Origin: a virus
Lineage: Duplodnaviria; Caudoviricetes
Reading direction: 5' to 3' (one strand)
Virus record (IMG/VR): IMGVR_UViG_3300023283_000070
Coordinates: 1-41,701 of that record
DNA length: 41,701 nt
In this document: one piece after another, positions 3,128-38,122 of the stretch
Position numbering within the stretch: position 1 is the first letter of the stretch
Layout of the letters: the number at the start of each line of letters is the position of its first letter
Notes under the pieces: generated by a model
What the model was told of the DNA's origin: nothing
The model's input: only the letters and a program-made list of their open reading frames with translations
The model's database searches: none
Position numbers and translations under genes: made by a program

Positions 3128-4792
3128 ATGAAGATCGGTGAGGAGGGCAAGGCGGCCGTCATCTACGCACGGGTGAGCACGGCGCGCCAGGCCGAGGAGG
3201 AGCTCCCCCTCGACAGCCAGGTCGCGCGGTGCAAGGAGCGCGCGGCCGCCCTGGGCGCGCGGGTGGTGAAACAGTTCGTTGATCCGGGGCTCTCGGGGCG
3301 TTCGGACCGCCGGCCGAAGTTCCGGGCAGCCATCGAGTACTGCGAGGGGGCGGGGGTCGACTACTTCATCACCTGGAGCACGTCCCGGTTCGCCCGCAAC
3401 AAGGTCGATGCAGGCGTCTATAAGCTCCGGCTCGCCCGGGCGGGCACCGAGCTCGTCTACGCCTCGATGCGGCTGGATCGGGAGAGCGACGCCGGCTGGA
3501 TGACCGAGGGGGTGCTCGAGCTGTTCGACGAGTTCGTGTCACGCCAGGTCGCCCAGGATACGATCCGGAGCATGGCGGCGAACGCCGAGCGTGGCTACTG
3601 GAATGGTGGCAACCCGCCCCTCGGCTACCGGCCAATCCCGGCACCGGACAACCCTGCCCGCCGGCGCCTCGAGGTCAACGAGGCCGAGGCCGGCCTGGTC
3701 CGCGAGATATTCCGCAAGCGGCTCGAGGGCGTGGGGACGAAGGCGATCGCGCAGTGGCTGAACGAGCGCGGGATGCTTCACCGCGGGCGCCCGTGGAAGA
3801 ATGGCGCGGTGGCACGCCTGCTGCGCAACGAGGCGGTGATCGGCCGTGTCGTGTTCGGTCGCAAGGACCGGTCCACGGGCCGCCGGCGTCCGCGCGAGGA
3901 CTGCATCGCGGTGGACGCGCACCAGCCCATCATCGACGCGGAGACCTGGCAGGCCGTGCAGTCGATGATGGACGCTGGCGTGAACCCGACCGAGCGCGGG
4001 CACCCGACCAGCACCCACCTGTTCACGGGGATGCTCCGCTGCGGCCTGTGCGGGGCGCGGATGCAGGTCGAGACGGCGAAGGGCCGGTCGAAGCGATACT
4101 CGTACTACGGGTGCCGGGCGCGCCAGCGTGAAGGGACCTGCAGGATGGGTCGGATCCCCTGCCACGAGCTCGACGAATTCCTGGTGGGGGTGATCGGCGA
4201 GAAGGTGTTCACCCGCGCCAACCTGGACCAGACCATCCGGGACCTGCACGAGGCTGCGGGCGCCTGGTCCCGGGACCACGCGGCGCGCGCGGCCGCGCTC
4301 GAGCGGGAGATCGAGAAGGTCGAGCAGCGCAACAGCAAGCTGTTCGAGCTGCTCGAGCGCCACGGGGCCGAGACGCCCCACCTGGGCGACGTCACGCGCC
4401 GCCTGCGGGCGAACAACAAGGAGCTCCAGGCCCTCGAAACCCAGCTCGGCGACTTGCGCGAGGAGGAGCCGCCCGAGATCGCCGTCACCGAGGACGACGT
4501 CGACGAGCTGCGCGAGCTCTTGATGGAGATCATCCGCACGACCGACCGGCCGGCGACGGTGCGGGAGTTCTTCTCCCACTTCATCCGGCAGATCGTCGTC
4601 GACGAGGAGGACGTGTCGATCCGCTACAACCCCGACCTACTGGTCGCCGTCCCCGCGGGAACGGTTCATCGAAGGGTGCACTCGGGCGGTATTTGGCTCC
4701 CCGGGCGGACCCTGCTGAGAACCCGGACCGTGAGGGTACCGCGGCCGGCGCGTCGGGGCAGGGCCGCCCCGGATGCCCGCCGCACGGCCTGA
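3128..4792 (+). CDS. Large serine recombinase (integrase)
   Basis: YARVST catalytic Ser, SRFARN, recombinase domain (GYWNGGNPPLGY), Zn ribbon LRCGLCG..YYGC, coiled coil. Confidence 0.95.
   Translation: MKIGEEGKAAVIYARVSTARQAEEELPLDSQVARCKERAAALGARVVKQFVDPGLSGRSDRRPKFRAAIEYCEGAGVDYFITWSTSRFARNKVDAGVYKLRLARAGTELVYASMRLDRESDAGWMTEGVLELFDEFVSRQVAQDTIRSMAANAERGYWNGGNPPLGYRPIPAPDNPARRRLEVNEAEAGLVREIFRKRLEGVGTKAIAQWLNERGMLHRGRPWKNGAVARLLRNEAVIGRVVFGRKDRSTGRRRPREDCIAVDAHQPIIDAETWQAVQSMMDAGVNPTERGHPTSTHLFTGMLRCGLCGARMQVETAKGRSKRYSYYGCRARQREGTCRMGRIPCHELDEFLVGVIGEKVFTRANLDQTIRDLHEAAGAWSRDHAARAAALEREIEKVEQRNSKLFELLERHGAETPHLGDVTRRLRANNKELQALETQLGDLREEEPPEIAVTEDDVDELRELLMEIIRTTDRPATVREFFSHFIRQIVVDEEDVSIRYNPDLLVAVPAGTVHRRVHSGGIWLPGRTLLRTRTVRVPRPARRGRAAPDARRTA
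4663..4723. other. Putative attP inside the integrase 3' end
   Basis: Imperfect palindrome centred on 4693 (GGTTC/GAACC, AGGGT/ACCCT, CTCGGG/CCCGGG all symmetric); the reverse complement of 4694-4706 is GCCCGGGGAGCCA, which resembles a tRNA-Asn 3' end. Confidence 0.6.
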
Positions 4793-5732: not shown

Positions 5733-6200
5733 GTGAGCTCTAAGGCGCTGGCACGAGACGACTCATTGCTGGGGGTCGATTTCCTCGACAGGGAGGGATG
5801 CATCGGCGCCCGTGGGGAGCGCATCCGCCAGGCCCGACTCAGGTTCACGCAGGCTCAGGTGGTCACGCTGACACGAGACGAGTTCTTCCGCGAGATGATG
5901 GACGTCAAGTTCTATGCTGGCACCCAACGTGATGATCCCGGTTGCGGTGTCCACCGAGTACTCCCCGCCCGAGGGCGGCGCCGAAGCCTTCGTGAGTTCG
6001 ACCCCCTGGTCTTACTGACGACGCCGGCCGCGCGCGCCGAAGCCGTGCGCGAGTACTGCGCCTGGCTCCACGGGACCCCCGCCGGTCGGGCCGTGAAGCG
6101 CGCCGCGCGCCGCGAACTCCGTGGCCGAAACCTGGCGTGCTGGTGCCCCACGGGGCACCCGTGCCACGCCCACGAGCTGCTCAAGGTCGCCAATGCCTGA
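5733..6200 (+). CDS. DUF4326-like protein (only the C-terminal half is recognisable; possibly chimeric)
   Basis: ELRGRNLACWC..PCHAHELLKVAN motif; stop overlaps the terL start. Confidence 0.6.
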   Translation: MSSKALARDDSLLGVDFLDREGCIGARGERIRQARLRFTQAQVVTLTRDEFFREMMDVKFYAGTQRDDPGCGVHRVLPARGRRRSLREFDPLVLLTTPAARAEAVREYCAWLHGTPAGRAVKRAARRELRGRNLACWCPTGHPCHAHELLKVANA

Positions 6201-7788
6201 GCGCGTCAGCAAGGCCACGCGGATCCGGATGCAGAACGTCGCGGAGCGCGAGGTCGCGCGCTACGCGGGGAACCACGCCGCCTGGCACAAGCACGTCCAC
6301 AACGTGGAGCTGGACCCCGTGCAGATCCTCAAGATGCGGGAGATGGACGAGCGTCCGAACACGGTCGACTTCTCCTGCCGGCGCACGGGTAAGACGGCGG
6401 TGAAGGAGCTCTACCTGCTCGAGCACAACGCCTGCGAGGCCGATCAGGAGCTCGGAATCGTGGCGCCGCGAGAGGCGCAGGCGCTGGTGAATCTCGAGTA
6501 CCACCTGGACGCGATCCGGCGGGCGCCGATCCTCACCGCATGGCTCGCCCACAAGCGCGGGCGGACGCAGTTCGCCGATACCTACTACGAGTTTGGCAAC
6601 CGGTCGAAGGCGCGCGCCTACGGGATCATGAGCCAGGTGGACGGCGGCGACCTGACGGCGGCCAGCCTCGAGGAGGTCGACGACATGCCGCGCGAGCGGC
6701 TGTTCTCGCGGTTCCTGCTGATGATGGCCGCGAATCGCCGGCTGGGGGCCTCGAAGGAGAGCCGGAACGACCCGCAGATCCGCGTCACGGGCGTGTTCAA
6801 GGGCGCCGACACGCTGACCGACCTGATCGCGAGCGAGCGATACCAGCCGCTGATGACGGTCGACGTCTATCTCGGGATGGAAATGGGGATCCTGAACGCC
6901 GCCTTCATGGAGGAGATGCGCATCCAGCTCGCCCCCGACGAGTACCTGCGCCAGCTCCTCTGCCGGAACGTCTCGGCGCGCAATCTCGTGTGGGAGAAGT
7001 TCGTCCGCCGCGCAATGCAGGTCGGCCTCGAGGCCGGTCTCGAGCTCGCGGTGCCGCTGCCGGGGGGGCGCTACCGGAAGCGCGGCCTACTCGCGCTCGG
7101 CTACGACGCGGGCGGCCACGGCGAGAGCGCGCACGCCTCCCGCCATGCGCTCGTCGTCGCCGAACAGATCGGCAACTACTGCACCATCCCGTTTGTGCGC
7201 ACCTGGCCCCCAGGCGCCGACGACCAGGTCGTGAAGCGCGACCTGTTCGGGCTGTGGGAGTACTTCGGCCCGGACTTCGCCATTGGCGACGCCTACGGTG
7301 TGGGGATGCTGACACAGCTCTGCGACGAGCTGTTCGCCGCCGGGCTGACGCGCGTCGACCGACGCACCATCGGGGACGGCGACAGCACGGCGAGCACCTG
7401 GCCGGAGTGGCCATTCTCGCCGCTGCGTTTCGAGGGGATGACGAAGCACTCGATGGCGCAGGCGCTCCGGCTCATCTTCCACAACAAGCAGGCGGCGATC
7501 CCGTACTTCGACGACCGCGATCCCCTCGACGAGGAGACGGCGGACCTGCGTCTGTTCGTTCGGCAGCTCCCCAACATCCGGCCGGAGCAGACGCGCACGA
7601 CGTACGCGAGCTACAAGATGGTCGACGAGACGATCGGCGACGACCTGTTCGACGCGGCGATGGCGGCCGTGTGGGCCCTGGTGACGCGCGGGGCCTCGCC
7701 GACCATCACTGCGGTGCTCAGCACGCGCCGGGGCCGCGAGCAGCTCCTGGAGCAGACACCGAAGCAACTCACGAGGGCGATGGCATGA
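6193..7788 (+). CDS. terL: Terminase large subunit
   Basis: ATG 6193 (MPERVS); Walker A SCRRTGKT, Walker B LEEVDD; RNase H-like nuclease residues (LGYDAG, DDLFDA). Confidence 0.88.
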   Translation: MPERVSKATRIRMQNVAEREVARYAGNHAAWHKHVHNVELDPVQILKMREMDERPNTVDFSCRRTGKTAVKELYLLEHNACEADQELGIVAPREAQALVNLEYHLDAIRRAPILTAWLAHKRGRTQFADTYYEFGNRSKARAYGIMSQVDGGDLTAASLEEVDDMPRERLFSRFLLMMAANRRLGASKESRNDPQIRVTGVFKGADTLTDLIASERYQPLMTVDVYLGMEMGILNAAFMEEMRIQLAPDEYLRQLLCRNVSARNLVWEKFVRRAMQVGLEAGLELAVPLPGGRYRKRGLLALGYDAGGHGESAHASRHALVVAEQIGNYCTIPFVRTWPPGADDQVVKRDLFGLWEYFGPDFAIGDAYGVGMLTQLCDELFAAGLTRVDRRTIGDGDSTASTWPEWPFSPLRFEGMTKHSMAQALRLIFHNKQAAIPYFDDRDPLDEETADLRLFVRQLPNIRPEQTRTTYASYKMVDETIGDDLFDAAMAAVWALVTRGASPTITAVLSTRRGREQLLEQTPKQLTRAMA

Positions 7789-9185
7789 GCGTACTCGGGG
7801 ATCTACTTGCCCGGTTCGGGCGCGGGTTCAAGGCCGCCGAGGAGAAGAAGCTCCCCGGCGAGCAGGCGCCGAACGACCTGGAGCTGGGCCGTCGCGCGAC
7901 GCCGGAGAACGCCACGAAGTACCTGTACCGGGCGATGTGGGTCGATTCCGACGTCCGCCAGGCCATCCTCGAGATTCGGGACATGGATCGGCAGGACGGA
8001 CGAGTCAAGCGCGTCCACGGTCGCAGCGCGCGGGCGGCGGTGAAGGGGGGCCTCAAGATCCGCGGTGCCAGCGGCCAGGAGCGTGTCCACCGTCGCTGGC
8101 ACGATTTCGAGCGCCGTCTCGGCCTGAACCGCCGGGAGAAGCTGCAGAGCGACATGCGCGGGCTGATGATGGAGGGGAACCTGCCCGCGCAGTGGGTGCT
8201 CGACGCCGAGGGGCAGCGCGTCGTGCGCGTGCTGCGGATGCCGACGGAGACGCTGCTGCCCGACGTGCTCCCGAACGGCACCTTCCGGAACCCGCGGGAG
8301 GCCTACACGCAGTTCGATCTGAGCACGGGCGCTCGCCTCGCCGTGTTCCCGCTCTGGCAGCTCACGTGCGGCCGCCTCGAGCCGGACAACTTCGACGACG
8401 TCGGCGCCCTCGGCCGGCCGTATCTGGACGCCAGCCGTGCCGTCTGGAAGAAACTCACGATGACCGAGGAGGACCTGGTGATCCGCCGTCGGATGCGTGC
8501 GCCGCTCCGCGTCTCCCACGTGCTGGAGGGGGCGGGAGAGGAGTACCTGGACCGCTACCGCAAACAGAACGAGCAGGCGCAGTCGGAGGGCGTCACGACC
8601 GATTACTACACCAACGTCAAGGGATCCATCACGGCCCTGCAGGGGGACGCCAGCCTGGATCAGATCGCGGACGTGGAGTATCTGCTCGACACATTTTTCG
8701 CCGGCGCGCCGGCGCCGAAGGGGCTGTTCGGCTACACGGGGGATCTCGCCCGGGACATCCTCGACGACCTGAAACGCGACTACTTCGACGAACTCGACGC
8801 CATGCAGGACACCCTATCGCAGGTCTACCGCTGCGGCTTCGAGCTCGAGCTGCTCCTCGCGGGCATGGACCCCGACAACTTCGACTTCGAGGTCGTGTTC
8901 GCCGAGCGCAAGACGGACACGCCGAACCAGCGCGCCGACCTGGCGCTCAAGTACTCGGCGCTCGGTTTGCCGAAGCGGATGGTGTGGGACGCCGCCGGGT
9001 TCGACGCCGAGGCCGTCGAGCAGGAGCTCGAGGTCGAGCGCGAGCGGTCCGACCCGTTCCCGGACGAGAGCGCCATCAACCCGCCGCAGGCGGGCGCCGG
9101 CCCGGGGCGTGTGAGCGTGACGCCTGGCAATGAGCGCAAGGGCGAGAGCGCCACGACGATCAGCACGAGATCCTCCCAGGGGTGA
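7785..9185 (+). CDS. Portal protein
   Basis: ATG 7785 overlaps the terL stop (ATGA); 466 aa; position between terL and MuF; portal-like GRPYLD..W segment. Confidence 0.8.
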   Translation: MSVLGDLLARFGRGFKAAEEKKLPGEQAPNDLELGRRATPENATKYLYRAMWVDSDVRQAILEIRDMDRQDGRVKRVHGRSARAAVKGGLKIRGASGQERVHRRWHDFERRLGLNRREKLQSDMRGLMMEGNLPAQWVLDAEGQRVVRVLRMPTETLLPDVLPNGTFRNPREAYTQFDLSTGARLAVFPLWQLTCGRLEPDNFDDVGALGRPYLDASRAVWKKLTMTEEDLVIRRRMRAPLRVSHVLEGAGEEYLDRYRKQNEQAQSEGVTTDYYTNVKGSITALQGDASLDQIADVEYLLDTFFAGAPAPKGLFGYTGDLARDILDDLKRDYFDELDAMQDTLSQVYRCGFELELLLAGMDPDNFDFEVVFAERKTDTPNQRADLALKYSALGLPKRMVWDAAGFDAEAVEQELEVERERSDPFPDESAINPPQAGAGPGRVSVTPGNERKGESATTISTRSSQG

Positions 9186-9490
9186 CCAAGGAGGAGCGTG
9201 CCAAGGCGCTCGCGCTGGCGCGGTGCCGGATGCTCCCAGGCTCCGGAGAGAAGCGGTTCGTGCGCAGCATGGTCTATCTGGCGGTCGACGAGCCCGACAC
9301 GGTGCTGACGCCGCCTCAGAAGTGGTACCTGGACACGGTCGTGTACCGCTTCCGACGGCAGCTCGCCGGCCGCGACGACGACTTCGCGATCCCGGCGGCG
9401 GCGCCAGACCGCGCGGACTATCTGGCGGCGGCCGAGGAGCGCCGCGCACGCCGCAACCGCGGCCGCCCGGTGCAAGGGAACCTGCTCTGA
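9182..9490 (+). CDS. Hypothetical protein (102 aa)
   Basis: Translationally coupled to both the portal and MuF genes; normal codon bias. Confidence 0.7.
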   Translation: MTKEERAKALALARCRMLPGSGEKRFVRSMVYLAVDEPDTVLTPPQKWYLDTVVYRFRRQLAGRDDDFAIPAAAPDRADYLAAAEERRARRNRGRPVQGNLL

Positions 9491-12400
9491 TGGCGTCGAT
9501 CCCGCAGGACGTCAGCGCCAACAGCCGCACCCAGCGGAAGGCGGCCATCAAGCGCGCGGCCCGGCGCGCGCGCCTGGAGCTCCGCACCCTCGACGCCGAG
9601 GCGCGCGCCGGCCTCACCGAGGTCTACAGGCGCGCACGGGACGACATCAAGACGGCGATCCTTCACGTCGCGCAGCCCGCAGGGAACGTCCGCCTCGAGG
9701 TCCTGCAGGACCTACTCAGGCAGGTGGAGGGGCGAATCACGGCCCTCGGCGCCGGCCGCGACGCCGCCCTCGCCACGCACCAGGCCGCGGCCGCGAAGAT
9801 CGGAGTGTCTCCGTTCGCGGAGGACGTCGCCTCGCTCGGCACCTCGCTCTCGAAGGTGTCTGACGACGCCGTCCAGTTCGTGCGCCGGTTCGTCGCCGCG
9901 GACGGCCTCCAGCTCTCCGATCGGTTGTGGCGCCTCGACATGCACGCCCGCGAGATCATCGGGCAGGAGATCCAGACGCGGGTGATCCAGGGCCATTCGG
10001 CGAGCAAGGCGGCCGAGGAGTTCCTGCTGGGCGGACAGCAGGCGCCGGCCTTTCTCGTCGAGAAGATCGGCCAAGCGCAGGCCGAGAAGATCGCGAACGT
10101 CGCCGGCGCCAAGCTGCTCGGCGGCAAGGGAAGCCCGCACGCGAACGCGCTCCGGGTGTTCCGCACCGAGATCAACCGCGCTCACGGCGAGGCCTTCCGC
10201 GCGGCTGCCTTCGAGCACCCGGACGTCGTCGGGACACGATTCCTGCTCTCGCCGAACCACCCGCGGCCGGATATCTGTGACATGCACGCGCGCGTGAACC
10301 GGTACGGGCTCGGCCCGGGCGTCTACCCGCGGGGGCGCTCTCCCTGGCCGGCGCACCCGAACACGCTCAGCTTCGAGGAACCGGTATTCCGCGACGAGGT
10401 CACTGACGAGGATCGCGCCGGCAAGGAGACGCGGATCGAGTGGCTGCAGCAGCAGCCGCCCGGAGTGCGCGTCGGCGTGCTCGGGGGTACGCGGAAGGCG
10501 CAGGCCTTCGCGCACGGCCTGATCGCGGAGAGCGAGATCGCGACGCCTTGGCGGGTGCTGCGGCCGCGCCTGGAGAAGAAGGGGTTCAGCTTCACTCACT
10601 CGCCCGAGCTCGCGAGCGAGTTCGAGGACGCGGCCCGCAACCAGGCGCAGATCATCGCCGAGGCGGCGGCGTTCGAGGCGGCGAAGGCCGAGCTGCGCGA
10701 GCAGGCCGCCGCCGCCGCGGAGCGTGCCAAGGAGGCCGCCGCGCAGCGCGCCGCGCAGATCGAGATTGACGCAATCGAAGCGACCGGCACGGGCTTCGCC
10801 GCGAAGGCGCTCACGAAGCTCAAGAAGTCGGGGGAGATCGACGCCGACACGCCGCCCGCGCAGGCGCTCGAGAAGGTGCAGGCCGAGGCCGCGGCACTCG
10901 AACAGAAGAAGAAGACCCAGAGCGGCCTGTCGAAGTACAAGTCCGCCATCGTCGCCGGCAAGGCGCCACCGCCCGCCGGCGTCACGGCAGTGGAGTCGCT
11001 CACGGACGCCGAGCGGGCCGAGTTCCTCGCCGGCGTCGAGGCGGCGGTGAAGAAGAAGAAGAAGCAGTTCCAGTCGGGGAAGTCGAAGTACAAGCAGGCG
11101 GTGCTTCAGGGGAAGGACCCGCCTCCCGCGGCGGTCGCCGCGTTCGATTCGATGACCGCGGCCGAGCAGAAGGCGTTCCTGGAGGAGATCGAGGCCGCGA
11201 AGATCAAGCAGGCGGCCGAGGCGCTCCAGGCCGGGGAGCTCCGCTTCGCCGACTTCGAGCGCGTCGGTCCACAGGGCGGTTCCAACCCCGGGGGGCTGTT
11301 CCGGCACCAGGTCACCGGAGAGCAGTGGTACATCAAGACGCCGGCGAGCGAGGACATCGCCCGCAACGAGGTCCTCGCCGGCGCCCTCTACCGCGCCGTG
11401 GGCGTCGAGGTCCCGGAGCTCCGTCTGCTCGAGGTCGACGGCAAGCCCGGCGTCGCTTCGCGCATCGTCGAGGGCCTCGGACAGGACGCCGCGGCGCTGC
11501 GCGCGGCTCGTGTCGCGGGGGTGCACGAGGGCTTCGCCGTGGATGCGTGGCTCGCGAACTGGGACGTGGTCGGTCTCGAGTTCGACAACCTGCTGGTGAA
11601 GGGCGGTCGGGCGCTCCGGGTGGATACGGGCGGGGCGCTGCGCTACCGCGCGCAGGGCGGACTCAAGGGCGCACGGTGGGGGCCGGTCGTGGAGGAGCTA
11701 GACACGTTGCGCAACCCGCAGACGAACCCGCAGGCCGCTTCCGTGTTCGGCTCCATCACCCGCGAGCAGCTCGAGGCGTCCGTGGCCCGGGTGCTGGCCG
11801 TCGACGACGACGAGATCCGCCGCCTGGTCGAGGGGCTGGGCCCGCGCGACGCCGCGGCGCGCCGCGAGCTCGTCGAGACTCTGCTGGCGCGCCAGCAGGA
11901 TCTGGGGCGGCGCTTCCCTGCCCTCGCCCGCCAGCGGCCGGCGCCGGCGCCGGCGGACGCCGGCGCGCGCATCACCGAGGAGGAGCTCGGGTTCATCCGC
12001 GAGGCCCGGCTGAACGGCTACGCCGTGAACACGGACAAGGGCGACGTCGAGGACCAGTCCGTGCTGGTGTGGCACGAGCTCGACGAGTCCGGGGCGCCGG
12101 TCACGGTCGCCGTCCTCAAGGTGCGCGAGCAGGCGAAGGTGGCGATCGGACGGCTGGTGAAGGAGTCGGGTGGCGACAGCGCCACGTTCGACGACCGCGG
12201 CGCCCACGCGAAGGTGCTGGAGGCGGTCAAGGGCGTCGGGATGCAGGCCAGCAAGAGCGACGTGCTCCGCGACAAGGACATCGCCCGGATCCGGGAGGCG
12301 CGGACGGTGTTCGATGCCGCTGTCGCCGAGATTCAGCGCCGTGACGGCGCGCCCGTCGCGCGCGGCTTCCGGGCGCACTTCGAGCCCTGGATCCAGGCGC

Positions 12401-13596
12401 TGGAGGCCTCGCTCGAGCGCCACACGGCCCGTGGCGGCCCCGCCTTCTGGTCGGCGCCCGGAGGGCGGCTGCTCGAGCAGTTCGTGGCGCCGGTGGTCGA
12501 CACCGGACAGGTGCCGCGAGTTCGTTTCGAGCGCGTCTCCGGCGTCTGGCGCAAGAAGAAGATCTCCCGCGGTCACGCGCAGCTTACCGCGGAGCATAAC
12601 TACACGACCGGGCATACCTGGCAGGCAACGCTCGCGAACGGCGTCACGGTGCGCTACTGGCCTGACACCGGGGACGTCCCGTTCGCGCTTCGCAACCGCC
12701 TCGAGCTCGAGTCCCCCGGCAACGCGGCGTCGGATGGGGCGCGCCTGTTCGAGGCGCTCGACGAGCTCGGCGTCGACTCGAGCCGGGCGACGTCGATCGA
12801 CACGGAGGAGCTCTACCTGCGCCGGGTCGCCTACCACCTGCGGGACGGGTTCCGGGACTTCGAGGCGGCGGTGAATGGCGTCCAGGACCAGTCCGAGCGG
12901 GTCGCCGCGATGCAGGCCTGGGTCAGCCAGCACCTCGGATCGGACATCACGCAGTCGCCGCTGTACCGGCCGGAGGGTGCCCGGGAGGCCTTCAACCAGG
13001 GCCGGCGCCACCAGGTGCGGCCCGACCTGTTCGGTCCCCGGTGGGAACGGTTCACCGCCGGCTACGTGCTGCACCACCGCATCACACAGTCGCGTGGCAT
13101 CGCGGCGGCGCTCGACAGGGTGCTCGAGAGCGGGGGGGTGATGGCGCCGACCACCGAGAAGCTGCGCCGCGGGCTGACGATCGGAGGGATGAGTCCAGCG
13201 TCGGATCTCGGGACGGGCGGCGCCAGCTACTTCTTCACGCGAGTCCAGACGCGCGCGACCGCGCAGGGACACGAGGGGCTCAACTGGAAGGCGGACCACC
13301 TGGCGCGCCTCGACGCGATCAGCTACTCGTCGGACCAGTTCGGTCGCGTGACCAGCCCGGACTTTGTGCTCGGGCACCGCCGCACGGGCATCGACGAGTG
13401 GCGCGCGACGGCGCGCAGCGGCAGCAACGAGACGATCTTCAAGGACGGGCTCTCCATCTTCGACGCGCTCGACAGCATCCGCGTGAGAGCGAGCGATCTC
13501 GACAAGGTGATGAAGGTGCTCGAGAAGCACAAGATTAGGGAATGGCCCGACGGCCGGCCGCTGAGCGAGGTCGTCAAGGTGGTCGGGAGGGACTGA
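9490..13596 (+). CDS. MuF (Mu gpF/SPP1 gp7-like) head protein with C-terminal kinase-like and ADP-ribosyltransferase-like domains (1368 aa)
   Basis: ATG 9490 (TGATG overlap); MuF motifs RTEINRAH, DICD..A, PAHPN; kinase motifs GGSNPGG, WYIK, NEVLA, DAWLANWD, VDTGG; ART-like LHH, GGASYFFTR, SNETIFK. Confidence 0.8.
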   Translation: MASIPQDVSANSRTQRKAAIKRAARRARLELRTLDAEARAGLTEVYRRARDDIKTAILHVAQPAGNVRLEVLQDLLRQVEGRITALGAGRDAALATHQAAAAKIGVSPFAEDVASLGTSLSKVSDDAVQFVRRFVAADGLQLSDRLWRLDMHAREIIGQEIQTRVIQGHSASKAAEEFLLGGQQAPAFLVEKIGQAQAEKIANVAGAKLLGGKGSPHANALRVFRTEINRAHGEAFRAAAFEHPDVVGTRFLLSPNHPRPDICDMHARVNRYGLGPGVYPRGRSPWPAHPNTLSFEEPVFRDEVTDEDRAGKETRIEWLQQQPPGVRVGVLGGTRKAQAFAHGLIAESEIATPWRVLRPRLEKKGFSFTHSPELASEFEDAARNQAQIIAEAAAFEAAKAELREQAAAAAERAKEAAAQRAAQIEIDAIEATGTGFAAKALTKLKKSGEIDADTPPAQALEKVQAEAAALEQKKKTQSGLSKYKSAIVAGKAPPPAGVTAVESLTDAERAEFLAGVEAAVKKKKKQFQSGKSKYKQAVLQGKDPPPAAVAAFDSMTAAEQKAFLEEIEAAKIKQAAEALQAGELRFADFERVGPQGGSNPGGLFRHQVTGEQWYIKTPASEDIARNEVLAGALYRAVGVEVPELRLLEVDGKPGVASRIVEGLGQDAAALRAARVAGVHEGFAVDAWLANWDVVGLEFDNLLVKGGRALRVDTGGALRYRAQGGLKGARWGPVVEELDTLRNPQTNPQAASVFGSITREQLEASVARVLAVDDDEIRRLVEGLGPRDAAARRELVETLLARQQDLGRRFPALARQRPAPAPADAGARITEEELGFIREARLNGYAVNTDKGDVEDQSVLVWHELDESGAPVTVAVLKVREQAKVAIGRLVKESGGDSATFDDRGAHAKVLEAVKGVGMQASKSDVLRDKDIARIREARTVFDAAVAEIQRRDGAPVARGFRAHFEPWIQALEASLERHTARGGPAFWSAPGGRLLEQFVAPVVDTGQVPRVRFERVSGVWRKKKISRGHAQLTAEHNYTTGHTWQATLANGVTVRYWPDTGDVPFALRNRLELESPGNAASDGARLFEALDELGVDSSRATSIDTEELYLRRVAYHLRDGFRDFEAAVNGVQDQSERVAAMQAWVSQHLGSDITQSPLYRPEGAREAFNQGRRHQVRPDLFGPRWERFTAGYVLHHRITQSRGIAAALDRVLESGGVMAPTTEKLRRGLTIGGMSPASDLGTGGASYFFTRVQTRATAQGHEGLNWKADHLARLDAISYSSDQFGRVTSPDFVLGHRRTGIDEWRATARSGSNETIFKDGLSIFDALDSIRVRASDLDKVMKVLEKHKIREWPDGRPLSEVVKVVGRD
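10903..11200 (+). repeat. Two tandem 51-aa repeats inside the MuF protein
   Basis: QSGLSKYKSAIVAGKAPPPAGVTAVESLTDAERAEFL versus QSGKSKYKQAVLQGKDPPPAAVAAFDSMTAAEQKAFL, 153 nt apart. Confidence 0.85.
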
Positions 13597-13598
13597 GC

Positions 13599-13940
13599 AT
13601 GGATCTGTTCGAGGCCTTCGAGCGCAGGCTGCCGCTAGTGGTGGTGGTGGCGCCCGACAACGAGCGCCTGGTCGGCGCCCTGTTCCGGCGCGAGCGTGGC
13701 GTCGCCTGGGCCGACGCCGGCTGGCCGGATGCTACGTGGCAGCCGTTCCACGTCCTCGAGGGGAAGGTGTCGGGGGAGGGTCCGTGGCAGGTCGGCGGTA
13801 CCGAGATCCGCCTGGCCGTCGACGGCGAGCGGTTGATGGAGGACTGGCGCGGCTGGCGCGAGTTCCGGGCGAGCGAGGACGGTCGGCGCTTCACGCCGGC
13901 CGCGGCCGCGGCGGAGGCCCGCCGCAGGGGGGTGCTGTAG
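13599..13940 (+). CDS. Hypothetical protein, candidate immunity protein (113 aa)
   Basis: ATG 13599, 2 nt after the MuF stop, with GGAGG RBS; Trp-rich. Confidence 0.7.
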   Translation: MDLFEAFERRLPLVVVVAPDNERLVGALFRRERGVAWADAGWPDATWQPFHVLEGKVSGEGPWQVGGTEIRLAVDGERLMEDWRGWREFRASEDGRRFTPAAAAAEARRRGVL

Positions 13941-14269
13941 TGTGGATCTTCGCCAGGCAAGGGTTCGTGTCCGTCGTGGAGCACCGTGAGCGGCGCCGGA
14001 TGCTGCTCGTACGGGGGCGCTTCGCCGGCGACGTCGAGGCGGTGTTCCCCGAGGCCGAGGGGCAGGTCGTCGAAACCCCGGACGCGGACTACCGATTCCG
14101 CGCCGAGCTCGATCGGACCGCCGTCGCGCTGCGGCTCGTCGACCTGGTTTTCGAGCTGGACTATCCGAACTTCAAGGCGTCGCTCCCGCCTGAGGCGCTC
14201 GATCGTCGCGAGGTCTATTCCGACGTCTGGCACCTGATGGCGCAGCACCAGGCCAGCGCGGGGGCGTGA
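13940..14269 (+). CDS. Conserved-looking hypothetical protein (109 aa), candidate second partner of MuF
   Basis: GTG 13940 overlaps the previous stop; MWIF..GFVSVV, LLVRGR, ADYRFRA, LDYPNFK pattern. Confidence 0.75.
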   Translation: MWIFARQGFVSVVEHRERRRMLLVRGRFAGDVEAVFPEAEGQVVETPDADYRFRAELDRTAVALRLVDLVFELDYPNFKASLPPEALDRREVYSDVWHLMAQHQASAGA

Positions 14270-14463
14270 TCGGCGCGAGCTCCTCGCCTTCGGTGCGAGC
14301 CCTGCGCCCGGAGGTCCGGTGTGCCCGGTGTAGACGGGTGCTATTCGACGGCGTGGTCATCAAGTCGCGCGTGGTGCGCCTTCTGCCGGCCGGTGGCGAG
14401 GCGAAGTGCAAATGCAAGGCGTGGGTGCGAGTCCCCGTCACCTACCGTGAATCAGACACCTAG
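14266..14463 (+). CDS. Com-like zinc-finger protein (65 aa)
   Basis: EVRCARCRRVLF...EAKCKC resembles the Mu Com RCxxCxKLL..KCxxC pattern; coupled to the upstream stop. Confidence 0.55.
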   Translation: MIGASSSPSVRALRPEVRCARCRRVLFDGVVIKSRVVRLLPAGGEAKCKCKAWVRVPVTYRESDT

Positions 14464-14561: not shown

Positions 14562-14618
14562 GAAAGCCGGGCGTCCGCGAGCGATCCGCGGGCGCCCGGC
14601 TTTTTTCGTTTCGGGGCC
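14562..14618 (+). terminator. Terminator/attenuator-like hairpin in the capsid leader
   Basis: 17-bp stem (14563-14579 with 14587-14603) followed by a T6 tract, 12 nt before the GTG start. Confidence 0.65.
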
Positions 14619-17462
14619 GTGAACACAGGGCGGATCTACTCTCTCGAGGAGGACGGGCACACCGGCGCGGTGCGCTTCCTGTCCGGATTCACCGTCTCTC
14701 TGGATGAGGGCCGGCGCACGAGCGTCGTCACGATCGTGCGTACCGGCTCGTTCAACGATCCGCGCTACGGCCAGTTCGAGATCACGCGGCAGATGCTGCT
14801 GCAGATGGTCGAGAACTTCGAGGCGAACGTCTACGGGCAGGACATATTCGTCGACGTCGCACACCGCCCGAGCGATGGGGCTGCGGCGAAGATACTGTCG
14901 CTGTTCGTGGAGGGGAACCGCCTGCGCGCCCGGGTCGAGTGGACCGACTACGGGCTCGACGCGGTACGGCGCCGTGGATTCCAGTACCTGTCCGCCGAGT
15001 TCCACGAGAACTGGCAGGACAACGAGCAGAACCGGACCTTCGGGCCGGTTCTGCTAGGCGCCGCGCTCACCGTGCGTCCGGTGATCAAGCGCTTGGACCC
15101 CATCCAACTGTCCGAGGCCAGCGATGACCATGCGGTGCTGGTTCATCCCGAGCTCGAGAGCACCCTCAAACGGGAGATCACGACCATGTGGAAGAACCTG
15201 ATCGACAAGCTCCGCAAGCAGCTCGCGGAGCAGCGCCTCTCCGAGGCGGTCATCAAGCGCCTGGCGGAGGCCTTCGCCTCGGCGCTGGAGGGCGTCACCG
15301 AGGAGCAGCGCGCCAACGTGCTGCTGAGCGAGTTCATCGAGTCGGGCAAGGCGCTCGCCGGCGATCGCCGGATGCTGCTCGGCGACGGCCTTGCCGGATT
15401 CCTGAACCGGCGCATCGAGGAGCTCGTCTCCGACGGGCAGGACCGCGCCGACGTCGTGCGCCGGATGGCGCAGGCCGGCGGCATCAACGAGAGCACGGTC
15501 AATCAGATCCTGCTGGGCGACACCGCCGGCGGGATCAACTGCCCGCCCATCGAGCGCCTGAACGGCTTCGCGCGCGCGCTCAACGTCAGCGCCGGTCGGC
15601 TCCGCGAGATCGCCGAGCGGGACGGGTGCACCTACGGGAACGGCAATCGGCGGGCCTCGAGCGACCCGCTCACTGCGGCCGACGTCGAGCGCATCCTCGA
15701 GGAGCGCGAGCGCGAGCGAGCCGAGACCGAGGCCGAGCGCACCCGGCGCCTCGAGGAGAACCGTGCGCTGTTCGCGAAGGTCCTGGACGAGGCCGAGGGC
15801 CTCAAGGCCCTGAGCGAGGAGACGCGCACGCAGCTCGCCGGCGCTGCCGACCTGATCACCGCGGAGATGACCGAGGGGCAGGTCCGGAAGCTCGCCGAGC
15901 ACCAGGTCAACATCGGCGGGCAGATCAGCGCCCAGGCGAAGCTCGCGGGCATGGGATTCGTCCGGAGCGGGGGGAGCGGCAGCGTGGTCATCAGCCTGGA
16001 CGAGTCGAACACGGTGAAGAAGCTCCAGGAGACCGTGGACCGTCGCCTCGGGATCCTGGATCTCTCCGACGCGCGGCGCTACGCACGCACCGGAGGGCAG
16101 CTGGTCGAGGAGAACAAGAAGCTCGCCGAGCGGGTGCTGGCGATGTTCGACGCCGACCCGCGGAACCGGACCCAGCTCGAGCGCGAGGCGAAGCAGCTCG
16201 CGAGCGGCGACAGCGTCGTCTCGGACGTCAACGTCCCGGTCGTGTGGGAGCGCACCGTCATCCGCGAGGCGCTCTACCAGGTGACCGCGCTGATGCTGAT
16301 GGACACCGGCGTCGAGCAGTTCGCCACGTCCTACATGATCCCCTACAGCTTCCGGGACACCGGCGCCGCCGGTGTGGACAACACGCGGAAGTACGAGGGG
16401 CAGGCCATCTCCCGCGCGGGCGTCACGCAGACGGCGGAGACGGCGTACAACAGGCCCCAAAAGCTCGCCTTCGAGGTCTCGGACGAGCTTCGCTATCTCA
16501 CCGCCGCGCGTCACCTGGACTGGGACGCCGTCGCGGAGAACCAGCGCAACGCCACCCGCATCATCTCCGAGGACAGCGATCGGCTCGCGTACAACGAGCT
16601 GCTGCAGGCGTCCGACGAGTTCGGCGCCGTCGTGGTCTCGGTGGCCGAGGACCTCGAGCCGCAGGCGGACGACACGAAGAACCTGTTCGTGCTCGCCAAC
16701 TTCCCCGTGGTGCGGCCGCGGGCGGTGTACGACCTGCAGGGCAACCAGGTCGGATCGACGGTCAACCCGATCGTCGTGACCTACGACTCGGTCGCGCGCG
16801 CGGAGTGGGACGGCACGGGATCGCAGCCGGCCGGCATCTACTACGTCCTCGACTACAACCTGGGCGAGATCCGACTCGTTGACGAGGCGGGCGACACGCA
16901 GGTGCCGGCGGACGCGACCGCGTACACCATAACCTACAGCTACGCGACCAACGTCTACGCCTTCGACACCGATCTCGGCGGGGCCGCGGCGGACGCCCAC
17001 TGGGACACGTTCCTCTACCGCTACGGGTTGCGCAAGTCGGTCGTCGAAGACGATCGCTTCCACGAGGCGAACTTCGGCGTGATGCGCGGCGCCGTGATGA
17101 CGCAGATCGAGCAGGCGAAGCAGTTCGGCGCCAACCACCGCCGACCGGGGACCGATCTCTCGGCGGACGGAAGCCTGGGCCGCATCAAGGACGTTCCGAA
17201 CTTCAAGGCGTTCGGTCCGAACCTGCACATCGGCGACCAGCGGCTGCTGATCGGCGAGCGCGGCGTCACGCGGTTCCGCATGACGCGCCCGTGGATGCTC
17301 GGCGAGCTCGAGAACCAGAAGGACGCCAACGGCCGCTTCACCGGCAAGAAGGAGGCCTACGGCGACCAGTTCATCGTCATCCACACGCCGACGCAGCTCA
17401 AGCGGGCGCTCACGAGCTTCGTGCTCTACAGCGCCGCGGGTCGCGTCGCTCGGACGGTCTGA
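14619..17462 (+). CDS. Mu-like prohead protease-scaffold-major capsid polyprotein (947 aa)
   Basis: Mu I-type protease motifs (VDVAH, ARVEWT, YLSAEF, LLGAALT.RP); coiled-coil scaffold with in-frame internal ATG at 15186 after GGGAG; capsid-like C-terminal part. Confidence 0.85.
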   Translation: MNTGRIYSLEEDGHTGAVRFLSGFTVSLDEGRRTSVVTIVRTGSFNDPRYGQFEITRQMLLQMVENFEANVYGQDIFVDVAHRPSDGAAAKILSLFVEGNRLRARVEWTDYGLDAVRRRGFQYLSAEFHENWQDNEQNRTFGPVLLGAALTVRPVIKRLDPIQLSEASDDHAVLVHPELESTLKREITTMWKNLIDKLRKQLAEQRLSEAVIKRLAEAFASALEGVTEEQRANVLLSEFIESGKALAGDRRMLLGDGLAGFLNRRIEELVSDGQDRADVVRRMAQAGGINESTVNQILLGDTAGGINCPPIERLNGFARALNVSAGRLREIAERDGCTYGNGNRRASSDPLTAADVERILEERERERAETEAERTRRLEENRALFAKVLDEAEGLKALSEETRTQLAGAADLITAEMTEGQVRKLAEHQVNIGGQISAQAKLAGMGFVRSGGSGSVVISLDESNTVKKLQETVDRRLGILDLSDARRYARTGGQLVEENKKLAERVLAMFDADPRNRTQLEREAKQLASGDSVVSDVNVPVVWERTVIREALYQVTALMLMDTGVEQFATSYMIPYSFRDTGAAGVDNTRKYEGQAISRAGVTQTAETAYNRPQKLAFEVSDELRYLTAARHLDWDAVAENQRNATRIISEDSDRLAYNELLQASDEFGAVVVSVAEDLEPQADDTKNLFVLANFPVVRPRAVYDLQGNQVGSTVNPIVVTYDSVARAEWDGTGSQPAGIYYVLDYNLGEIRLVDEAGDTQVPADATAYTITYSYATNVYAFDTDLGGAAADAHWDTFLYRYGLRKSVVEDDRFHEANFGVMRGAVMTQIEQAKQFGANHRRPGTDLSADGSLGRIKDVPNFKAFGPNLHIGDQRLLIGERGVTRFRMTRPWMLGELENQKDANGRFTGKKEAYGDQFIVIHTPTQLKRALTSFVLYSAAGRVARTV

Positions 17463-37522: not shown

Positions 37523-38122
37523 ATGGCGAACGTGTTCACGAGGTATCTCACCGCCGCCGAGGAGCGGCAACTGTTCAAGGCGGTCGGGCAGTACGCCGAC
37601 CCGCTCGCGCGCCGCGACCACGCCTGGATGAGGGCGCTGCGCTACACCGGGGTCCGCGTCCGCGCCTTCTCGCGACTGACCGTGCTCGACGCCAACCAGG
37701 CGCTGCGCACCGGCTACCTGCAACTGTCGGCCGAGATCCAGAAGGGCAGCCGAGCGCACACGGTTTACCTGACGCGCAAGGCGCGCGTTGCGTTCCGCGA
37801 TCTGCTGCGGGTGCGCCGGGACATGGGACACGCGCCGGTCGACGACGCGCCGCTCGTGATGAGCCGGAATCATCGCCCGCTCTCCGTGCGCTCGTACCAG
37901 GTACGGATGCAGCACTGGTGCCAGCTGGCCGGCCTGGACGTGCAGGCCTCGCCGCACTGGTGGCGCCACACGCTCGCCAAGCGGCTGATCGCCCGCAGCG
38001 AGGCCCGCGACCCCCTCGGCATCGTGCAGGGGGCTCTCGGGCACCGCTCGCGCAACAGCACCGCTGTCTACGTGCTCCCGGACCGGGAGGACGTCGAGCT
38101 CGCGATGGAGCTGGCGTCGTGA
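37523..38122 (+). CDS. Tyrosine recombinase, catalytic domain only (199 aa)
   Basis: GGAGG RBS; R (TGVRV), K (QKG), HxxR (HWWRH), H (LGH), Y (AVYV); no core-binding domain. Confidence 0.9.
   Translation: MANVFTRYLTAAEERQLFKAVGQYADPLARRDHAWMRALRYTGVRVRAFSRLTVLDANQALRTGYLQLSAEIQKGSRAHTVYLTRKARVAFRDLLRVRRDMGHAPVDDAPLVMSRNHRPLSVRSYQVRMQHWCQLAGLDVQASPHWWRHTLAKRLIARSEARDPLGIVQGALGHRSRNSTAVYVLPDREDVELAMELAS

Follow-up and report, generated by a model that had tools for sequence, protein, structure and literature searches.

MuF-type head proteins that carry a C-terminal enzyme are an established group among temperate phages. In the survey of MuF polymorphic toxins by Jamet et al. (2017), passages of which (PMC5576092) also place SPP1 gp7 in capsids, ADP-ribosyltransferases (ARTs) account for 14% of the toxins and small open reading frames (ORFs) follow 89.4% of them; the word "kinase" is absent from the main text. 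T4 Alt is injected with the phage, according to sections of PMC5512222, and sections of PMC13645617 describe a T7 kinase which disarms defences. MuF–ART fusions and multi-enzyme head cargo are already known. The subject here is a MuF protein of 1368 residues encoded at 9490..13596 (+) in IMG/VR virus record IMGVR_UViG_3300023283_000070; the window, that is, the whole stretch of DNA analysed, comprises the entire record of 41,701 bases. In the protein the MuF domain is followed by a predicted kinase and a predicted ART; two small genes, d1 and d2, lie downstream of its gene. Its layout is that of a MuF polymorphic toxin: an N-terminal MuF domain, a place in the head and packaging module, a variable C-terminal enzyme and a small downstream ORF. 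The module is a real, widespread and unannotated phage cargo, a kind of MuF toxin or polyvalent protein. Our best explanation, to which we assign a probability of about 60%, is that this head protein would be injected as a two-enzyme effector, with d1 and d2 as its putative antidotes.

Domain architecture of the MuF protein

The gene is a single open frame between the portal and the protease–capsid genes. The start at 9130 given by the ORF lister was rejected in favour of the ATG at 9490, because the latter overlaps the stop of an upstream ORF of 102 residues (TGATG) and gives the 1368-residue form found in databases. A reading made earlier from the letters alone (the sequence-only reading) had described a MuF domain to about 10570, a linker and two repeats of 51 residues, and all were recovered. 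The MuF (minor head/head morphogenesis) domain, at 9490..10584 (+), matches PHROG 1657 (E 9e-30, residues 16–301) and five other head PHROGs; the linker at 10585..10899 (+), residues 366–470, is 32% Ala; and two repeats of a small conserved unit, at 10900..11214 (+), are visible at an offset of 51 residues. This unit is present in 110 of 230 collected proteins, as a single copy in 97 and as two copies in 13. Pfam MuF (PF04233) does not match the 1368-residue protein itself; of the 119 homologues listed, 100 have it as a precomputed match. The whole protein and each of its domains gave nothing above cut-off in Pfam, and NCBIfam and PADLOC were likewise empty.

A homologue search with residues 580–1368 (the module) scored 7,992 candidates, 294 of which passed, the best 120 of the 294 being listed. 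The 119 listed homologues cover 96–100% of the module at 36–54% identity to the query and share a common end point, and approximately 800 viral stretches fit the module's patterns. Column conservation over the 120 aligned modules is highest in both putative catalytic domains, the middle region standing at 27–45%. Longer members add Nudix, zeta-kinase, WGR and LPD38 domains, and inteins are found within the MuF–kinase–ART proteins of loci L028 and L030.

The atypical kinase domain occupies 11233..11925 (+), residues 582–812. Every motif position named by the sequence-only reading, for this domain as for the ART, was matched and is near-invariant over the 120 modules. Here they are GGSNPGG at 11275, K616 at 11335, NEVLA at 11365, DAWLANWD at 11542 and VDTGG at 11620; K616, E627, D692 and D712 are each found in 120 of 120 and N700 in 119. 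Motif order suggests the catalytic roles of these residues (Lys, Glu, Asp/Asn and DxG), and the DxG motif is followed by a basic stretch that is likewise invariant (R720, K726; RAQG-x2-K). A structure model of residues 580–1368 (predicted local distance difference test, pLDDT, 93.4; predicted template modelling score, pTM, 0.75) reveals a complete helical C-lobe, as does the fold search. Foldseek ranked CtkA first (E 5e-6), and exhaustive alignment of the kinase model with VIA gave CtkA at Z 16.2 (root-mean-square deviation, rmsd, 3.2; 208 residues aligned), followed by CotH (14.3), PI4KII-alpha (13.7), MavQ (12.8) and HipA (11.9). The HipA/PI-kinase-like fold proposed earlier was thus borne out when checked by itself, and the model supports a predicted kinase of the CtkA/HipA/PI4K branch. 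Sequence and profile searches of the PDB returned nothing for this domain or for the ART. HipA_C is seen below threshold in 45 of 62 members (best member E 1.2e-5); membership of the HipA family (PF07804/PF20613) was rejected, the score being 17 bits against a cut-off of 30.5 and the small genes matching no family. The fold neighbours act on proteins and lipids, and the fold therefore does not choose between substrates; protein Ser/Thr is somewhat better than an even bet, NAD+, ADP-ribose or another small molecule is less probable, and lipid is improbable.

The DarT-fold ART-like domain lies at 12772..13593 (+), with a helical lead-in and a core from 13057, and displays H1196, R1226, S1235, D1239, Y1247, R1251 and E1314. 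Its motifs VLHH, YFFTR and E1314 map to 13066, 13228 and 13429; H1196 is conserved in 116 of 120 modules, Y1247 in 118, and R1251 and E1314 in all. When the model of residues 1095–1368 (pLDDT 92.5, pTM 0.89) was aligned by VIA with 48,161 chains, just four reached Z ≥ 8, all of them DarT (9.9, 9.3, 9.1 and 8.9; rmsd 3.4–4.0, 145–155 residues aligned, 7–12% identity); next came SopF (6.8), Tpt1 (5.7), CopC (5.5) and OspC3 (5.2). DarT also takes Foldseek ranks 1–7, every E value being at least 0.055. In a language-model (ESM) atlas, unnamed clusters come first, followed by DUF5846 and OspC-containing clusters at 0.90–0.91; in the row at 0.90, OspC is on 33% of members. The best rows of two fold searches are thus all ARTs and the terminal Glu is invariant, with moderate scores, so the ART-like fold foreseen by the sequence-only reading is upheld at the level of a model that matches no Pfam family. 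We read the domain as a new family, of predicted activity, in the DarT/SopF/OspC branch, which holds modifiers of DNA and of protein. Its profile gathers 1,912 clusters (50% identity) at E 0.001 and 460 at 1e-30, and the domain occurs by itself on a Mycolicibacterium plasmid (CP089609.1, 7962–8591; 32% identity).

Three known groups were considered for the ART and rejected: DarTG, since neither d1 nor d2 matches a DarG macrodomain or NADAR; the OspC/CopC ADP-riboxanases, on account of the motif N-E-T and a fold Z of 5.2–5.5; and ART-PolyVal, as PF18760 is located elsewhere in some homologues. The ADP-riboxanases possess an E-x-H catalytic pair and an ankyrin targeting domain. DNA or RNA has about an even chance of being the ART substrate, protein a slightly smaller one, and mere hydrolysis of NAD+ is improbable.

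Between the two enzymes, the separate domain of about 350 residues suggested earlier was found to be composite. Judged by its secondary structure in the model, 11965..12771 (+) forms a beta-sheet domain, part of the ART module, into which a four-helix bundle (~12202–12432) is inserted; N842, G843, D849 and D855 are invariant in the 120 modules. This region was modelled within the module, and Foldseek with the whole module gave kinases only. Gp15 of cyanophage Pan1 consists of MuF, a beta unit that lacks the bundle (by eye) and a DarT-fold ART, with no kinase, and loci L039 and L064 combine kinase, bundle and an R-S-E ART; these layouts assign the beta unit to the ART and place the bundle, as a tendency, after the kinase.

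Pairing of the kinase with ARTs and with d1 and d2

Collapsing the loci from viral contigs, genomes and GenBank phages on their anchor domain (90% identity) left 129, of which 127 have the kinase; they were sampled by similarity to the 1368-residue protein (best 80 per search) and are not a census. An ART was recognized by profile or Pfam in at least 97 of the 127 kinase loci: DarT-fold in 49, R-S-E by its own profile in 41 and R-S-E by Pfam in seven more, with both classes together in none. Over all loci, the DarT-fold ART occurs in 51 versus 41 for the R-S-E ART. Six of the 30 remaining kinase loci are cut by the locus end, and 17 remaining tails, read by eye, revealed R-S-E-like motifs in 10, DarT-like motifs in one and neither in six. 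The terminal slot is regarded as an ART slot because, among 21 tails of other kinase proteins, Pfam detects an R-S-E ART in the same position in 11 (E ≤ 0.01 or better). Mapped onto a quick tree of 125 kinases, the DarT-fold label takes 14 changes, at least six of which are forced by supported branches; the ART class is interchangeable and has been swapped repeatedly. Across 27 loci, the distances between kinases show no correlation with those between ARTs (r 0.04). The association survives this repeated replacement, which points to a functional logic in the pairing. In Forza, a Gordonia phage, the portal gene is followed by the kinase gene, and two genes beyond the latter stands the ART in a gene of its own. 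The converse association is less tight: of 77 ART proteins with enough room for a kinase, 8 lack it.

Nudix genes or domains stand beside 23 of 41 R-S-E kinase loci versus 6 of 49 DarT-fold kinase loci. Environmental phages from many phyla make up most of the loci; several loci lie in Endozoicomonas genomes, and kinase relatives are also found in phages without the MuF fusion. Since the kinase is present together with an R-S-E ART and d2 in cultured phages that infect E. coli and P. putida, the role of MuF-type and other head cargo at entry is directly testable. In Chloroflexota and Actinomycetota (L106, L122, L131, L137 and L150) the kinase resides in proteins of >2,900–5,500 residues, twice in L106, which also contain ARTs, Nudix, WXG100-like or deamidase domains. 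The Dehalococcoidia kinase proteins (L133–L138) have a C-terminal, divergent R-S-E-like ART with a weak match to DraT, and L134 additionally has a C5 DNA methylase. A conserved, helical-looking protein of 160 residues (L072, 8713–9192; L075, 8734–9237) lies between kinase plus R-S-E ART and Nudix in phages of ~90 kb; it fills the d1 slot and is noted as particle-associated in fHe-Yen8-01.

Gene d1 (13599..13940, +; 113 residues) starts 3 bases past the stop of the MuF gene, and d2 (13940..14269, +; 109 residues) overlaps the stop of d1. Their co-occurrence suggests that they are likely two antidotes, d1 of the DarT-fold ART and d2, as antidote or partner, of the kinase. Gene d1 is found in none of 78 loci without the DarT-fold ART and in 33 of 51 with it, among them Pan1, where it stands behind the kinase-less ART. 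Gene d2 is found in 38 of 49 loci with kinase and DarT-fold ART, in 24 of 41 with kinase and R-S-E ART and in 2 of the 37 remaining loci; 18 of these 64 copies run on the opposite strand. A search of 50,697 phage records with d2 gave seven matches, all kinase-bearing, and 12 actinophage kinase records and Pan1 had no d2 match. Starting from d2 itself, 14 distinct new loci of at least 5 kb were recovered, with the kinase inside four. Five d2-found records searched whole contain the kinase in four cases, more than 10 kb from d2 in three of these; an R-S-E ART was recognized with it three times, twice by profile and once by eye, and the kinase-less record is 55% complete. A generic partnership of d2 with ARTs was rejected, d2 being absent from kinase-less phage records, but L177 has d2 beside an R-S-E ART at a place where the upstream DNA is missing.

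Neither small gene matched a macrodomain, NADAR, Pfam, PDB or PADLOC entry; d2 showed no match to the HipB/HipS families and only unnamed clusters in the ESM atlas, and a sigma-70 promoter scan found no site upstream of d1/d2. Conserved His and Trp mark d1. The polar residues R25, R27, D50, Y51, R54, N77 and K79 are invariant in d2, which may consequently have an enzyme role. Two d2 homologues without a nearby kinase (L175, near 10001–10303; L174, 8701–10324) were seen, one adjoining a type I restriction-like gene and one a Nudix; they are possibly orphan antidotes in hosts.

A relative outside phages was found in genomes of the P. syringae complex, where proteins of 715 residues have a kinase 39–40% identical to that described here, with all motifs, together with N-terminal R-S-E-like ART motifs (by eye) and a C-terminal Nudix. 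In one such locus (L127) two ORFs follow, the second presumably preceded by an hrp box. This layout matches the order hopAG1-hopAH1-hopAI1 in the relevant part of PMC2745422, and HopAG1 has an N-terminal ART and a C-terminal Nudix according to parts of PMC9963460, in whose main text the word "kinase" is absent. From architecture and synteny, we infer that this protein is HopAG1; if so, the kinase would account for the middle part of a plant effector. The likeness to HopAG1 proposed in the sequence-only reading therefore held for the kinase (40% identity) and failed for the ART class. The 1368-residue protein was rejected as a HopAG1 member, only the kinase being in common: the HopAG1-like protein joins its kinase to an ART and has a Nudix, as do many phage relatives, but its ART is of the N-terminal R-S-E type, it lies in a type III secretion system cluster, and it has no MuF, d1 or d2.

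Proposed injected cargo and competing explanations

If the protein is an injected two-enzyme effector, it likely travels in the virion and likely enters with the DNA as a predicted ATP-dependent kinase of CtkA/HipA fold joined to a predicted NAD+-dependent ART of DarT fold. During the first minutes of infection both enzymes would modify host targets, blunting defence or stalling the cell until d1 and d2 are made; these would likely neutralize one enzyme each and protect a lysogen. The sequence-only reading had already proposed a dual effector, for which confident models of both folds now speak; it missed the two co-inherited small genes and the interchangeability of the ART. Packaging is supported by the MuF domain and the position in the head module. 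In Yersinia phage fHe-Yen8-01, gp129 (2,146 residues; kinase and R-S-E ART) bears the GenBank note "particle-associated", as do the next two genes, one of them a Nudix; its d2 homologue is annotated simply as hypothetical.

Several observations weigh against this explanation. Gp129 of fHe-Yen8-01 has no MuF match, and its particle note comes from GenBank annotation. The catalytic loop of the kinase, D-x7-N without Arg-His, is atypical. The ART fold match is moderate (7–12% identity, Z < 10 and Foldseek E ≥ 0.055), and the PDB, Pfam and PADLOC yielded no match when searched by profile. The d1 pairing yields four independent tree pairs, of which all but an average of 0.3 agree in direction (p 0.125), and distance correlations separate the pairings weakly (d1–ART 0.40, d1–kinase 0.26; d2–kinase 0.39, d2–ART 0.33). 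Gene d2 occurs without a nearby kinase in the bacterial-looking loci L171 and L174–L176, and on two of three plasmids without a kinase match. As d1 is missing from 18 of 51 and d2 from 11 of 49 DarT-fold loci, some of them cut short, the antidotes may be non-essential or replaced.

The alternative that survives best, which we nevertheless consider rather doubtful, is a coupled chemistry in which the kinase serves ADP-ribosylation, phosphorylating NAD+, ADP-ribose or the installed mark, or making the phosphate which the ART caps, in one pathway with Nudix as the third step. The near-obligate ART partner of whatever class (97 of 127 loci by profile and, by eye, 11 more with R-S-E-like motifs and one with a DarT-like tail), a link kept in Forza with separate genes, the adjoining or fused Nudix and the invariance of R720 and K726 are congruent with it, and the identical kinase residues in the plant-directed HopAG1-like protein suggest a universal substrate. 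By comparison, ARTs occur without the kinase in Pan1 and in the 8 of 77 proteins mentioned above, the nearest solved folds are protein and lipid kinases, and independent cargo fits the uncorrelated distances and the free swapping of ART classes of different chemistry. A related conjecture, slightly more doubtful still, devotes the kinase family to ADP-ribose biology: with an ART of either class, it would phosphorylate NAD+, ADP-ribose or the fresh mark, or prime the acceptor. On the same conjecture the double mark would resist host erasers, d2 would represent a new fold acting as eraser or inhibitor, and d1 would be a novel antidote against a DNA ART delivered by the virion.

It is improbable that the protein acts in self-protection or superinfection control, the DarT-fold ART marking the phage's own incoming or a competitor's DNA and d1/d2 later erasing or regulating the mark. 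The DarT fold, the potentially catalytic invariant residues of d2 and conserved His and Trp of d1, and the occasional placement of d2 amid replication genes, well away from the head module, suit this idea, but the small genes match no family in the searches above, and the same slot is occupied by R-S-E ARTs, which mostly modify proteins. Least probable is a lysogen-borne effector directed against predators or eukaryotic hosts, in the manner of Bxa, itself phage-encoded, or of the type III effectors sharing these folds, since, despite the fold relatives CtkA, SopF, OspC, CopC and CteC, the HopAG1-like homologue and the Endozoicomonas loci, there is no secretion signal context, the head-module position is strict, most loci are environmental phages of many phyla, and the antidote-like genes present here are absent beside HopAG1-like genes.

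Phage context and comparison with known systems

The record has direct terminal repeats, is 100% complete (CheckV) and has a G+C content of ~70%. Pfam and PHROG matches reveal a primase, neck, tail tube, tape measure and CII-like activator; the terminase match is weak (E 0.03). Judged from its genes, the phage is likely temperate and long-tailed. Three recombinases, a pair resembling tyrosine integrases and a large serine recombinase, are found within the 41.7 kb (1573–2625, 3128–4792 and 37523–38122). The portal is at 7785..9185 (+; PHROG 104, 19480). A terminator-like hairpin of 18 pairs at 14562..14604 (+; one site found versus 0.6 expected by chance) ends the terminase–portal–MuF–d1–d2 block, and beyond it a protein of 947 residues (14619..17462, +) has an N-terminal, Mu-like maturation protease domain (PF10123, PHROG 328). 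It is likely a protease–scaffold–capsid fusion, the capsid part being surmised from length and position. The 102-residue ORF (9182–9490, +) is coupled to both the portal and MuF genes; it belongs to no family searched and has no match in related loci. A 65-residue ORF (14266–14463, +) possesses two Cys pairs, is zinc-ribbon-like with weak Pfam/NCBIfam matches, and has no homologue among 71 related loci; we take it to resemble Mu Com. Upstream of the terminase is a DUF4326 protein (5733–6200, +; Pfam), which may join the same network because part of PMC9503650 ties DUF4326 to ADP-ribose processing.

A search of the open literature, a scope outside which lie subscription papers and polyvalent-protein supplements, found no CtkA-fold kinase on MuF, DarT-fold head ART, kinase–ART coupling, or d1/d2 families. 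The T7 kinase is a functional precedent as a phage kinase directed against host defences; as described in parts of PMC13645617, it is early-expressed, with a DPV motif and a shut-off domain, and is thereby set apart. CtkA, HipA, CotH and PI4KII share the fold and the K-E-D-N-D catalytic set with the kinase described here at ~15% identity; the D-x7-N loop without Arg-His and the RAQG-x2-K segment distinguish the latter. Polyvalent proteins and head-packaged ARTs (Iyer et al. 2017, PMC5512222; 2022, PMC9503650), T4 Alt and Bxa likewise represent multi-enzyme virion cargo, and MuF is fused to ART, Nudix and zeta kinase in them as in longer homologues here. In the portions of those articles that describe them, their ARTs are H-Y-D (ART-PolyVal/N4) or Alt/VIP2, unlike the DarT-fold ART, and their kinase, from Verrucomicrobia/Bacteroidetes, is without the C-terminal subdomain, whereas that described here has a full helical C-lobe.

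The MuF polymorphic toxins, as far as passages of PMC5576092 describe them, share with this locus MuF plus a C-terminal enzyme, the head module, a small ORF directly after and a temperate phage; here there are two enzymes, the ART is DarT-fold with no Pfam match, and there are two candidate new antidote families. DarT1 and DarT2 of DarTG are the best fold match for the ART, with a common His in strand 1, terminal Glu and GG motif after the first helix. In parts of PMC9967889 and PMC11543638 the DarT catalytic Arg is R51/R52 and the base-holding residues are H119/N104. Identity is 7–12%, no DarG/NADAR partner is present, and a virion-protein fusion stands in place of a host toxin–antitoxin defence; a head-delivered DarT-fold enzyme would, if true, make a known anti-phage weapon a phage weapon.

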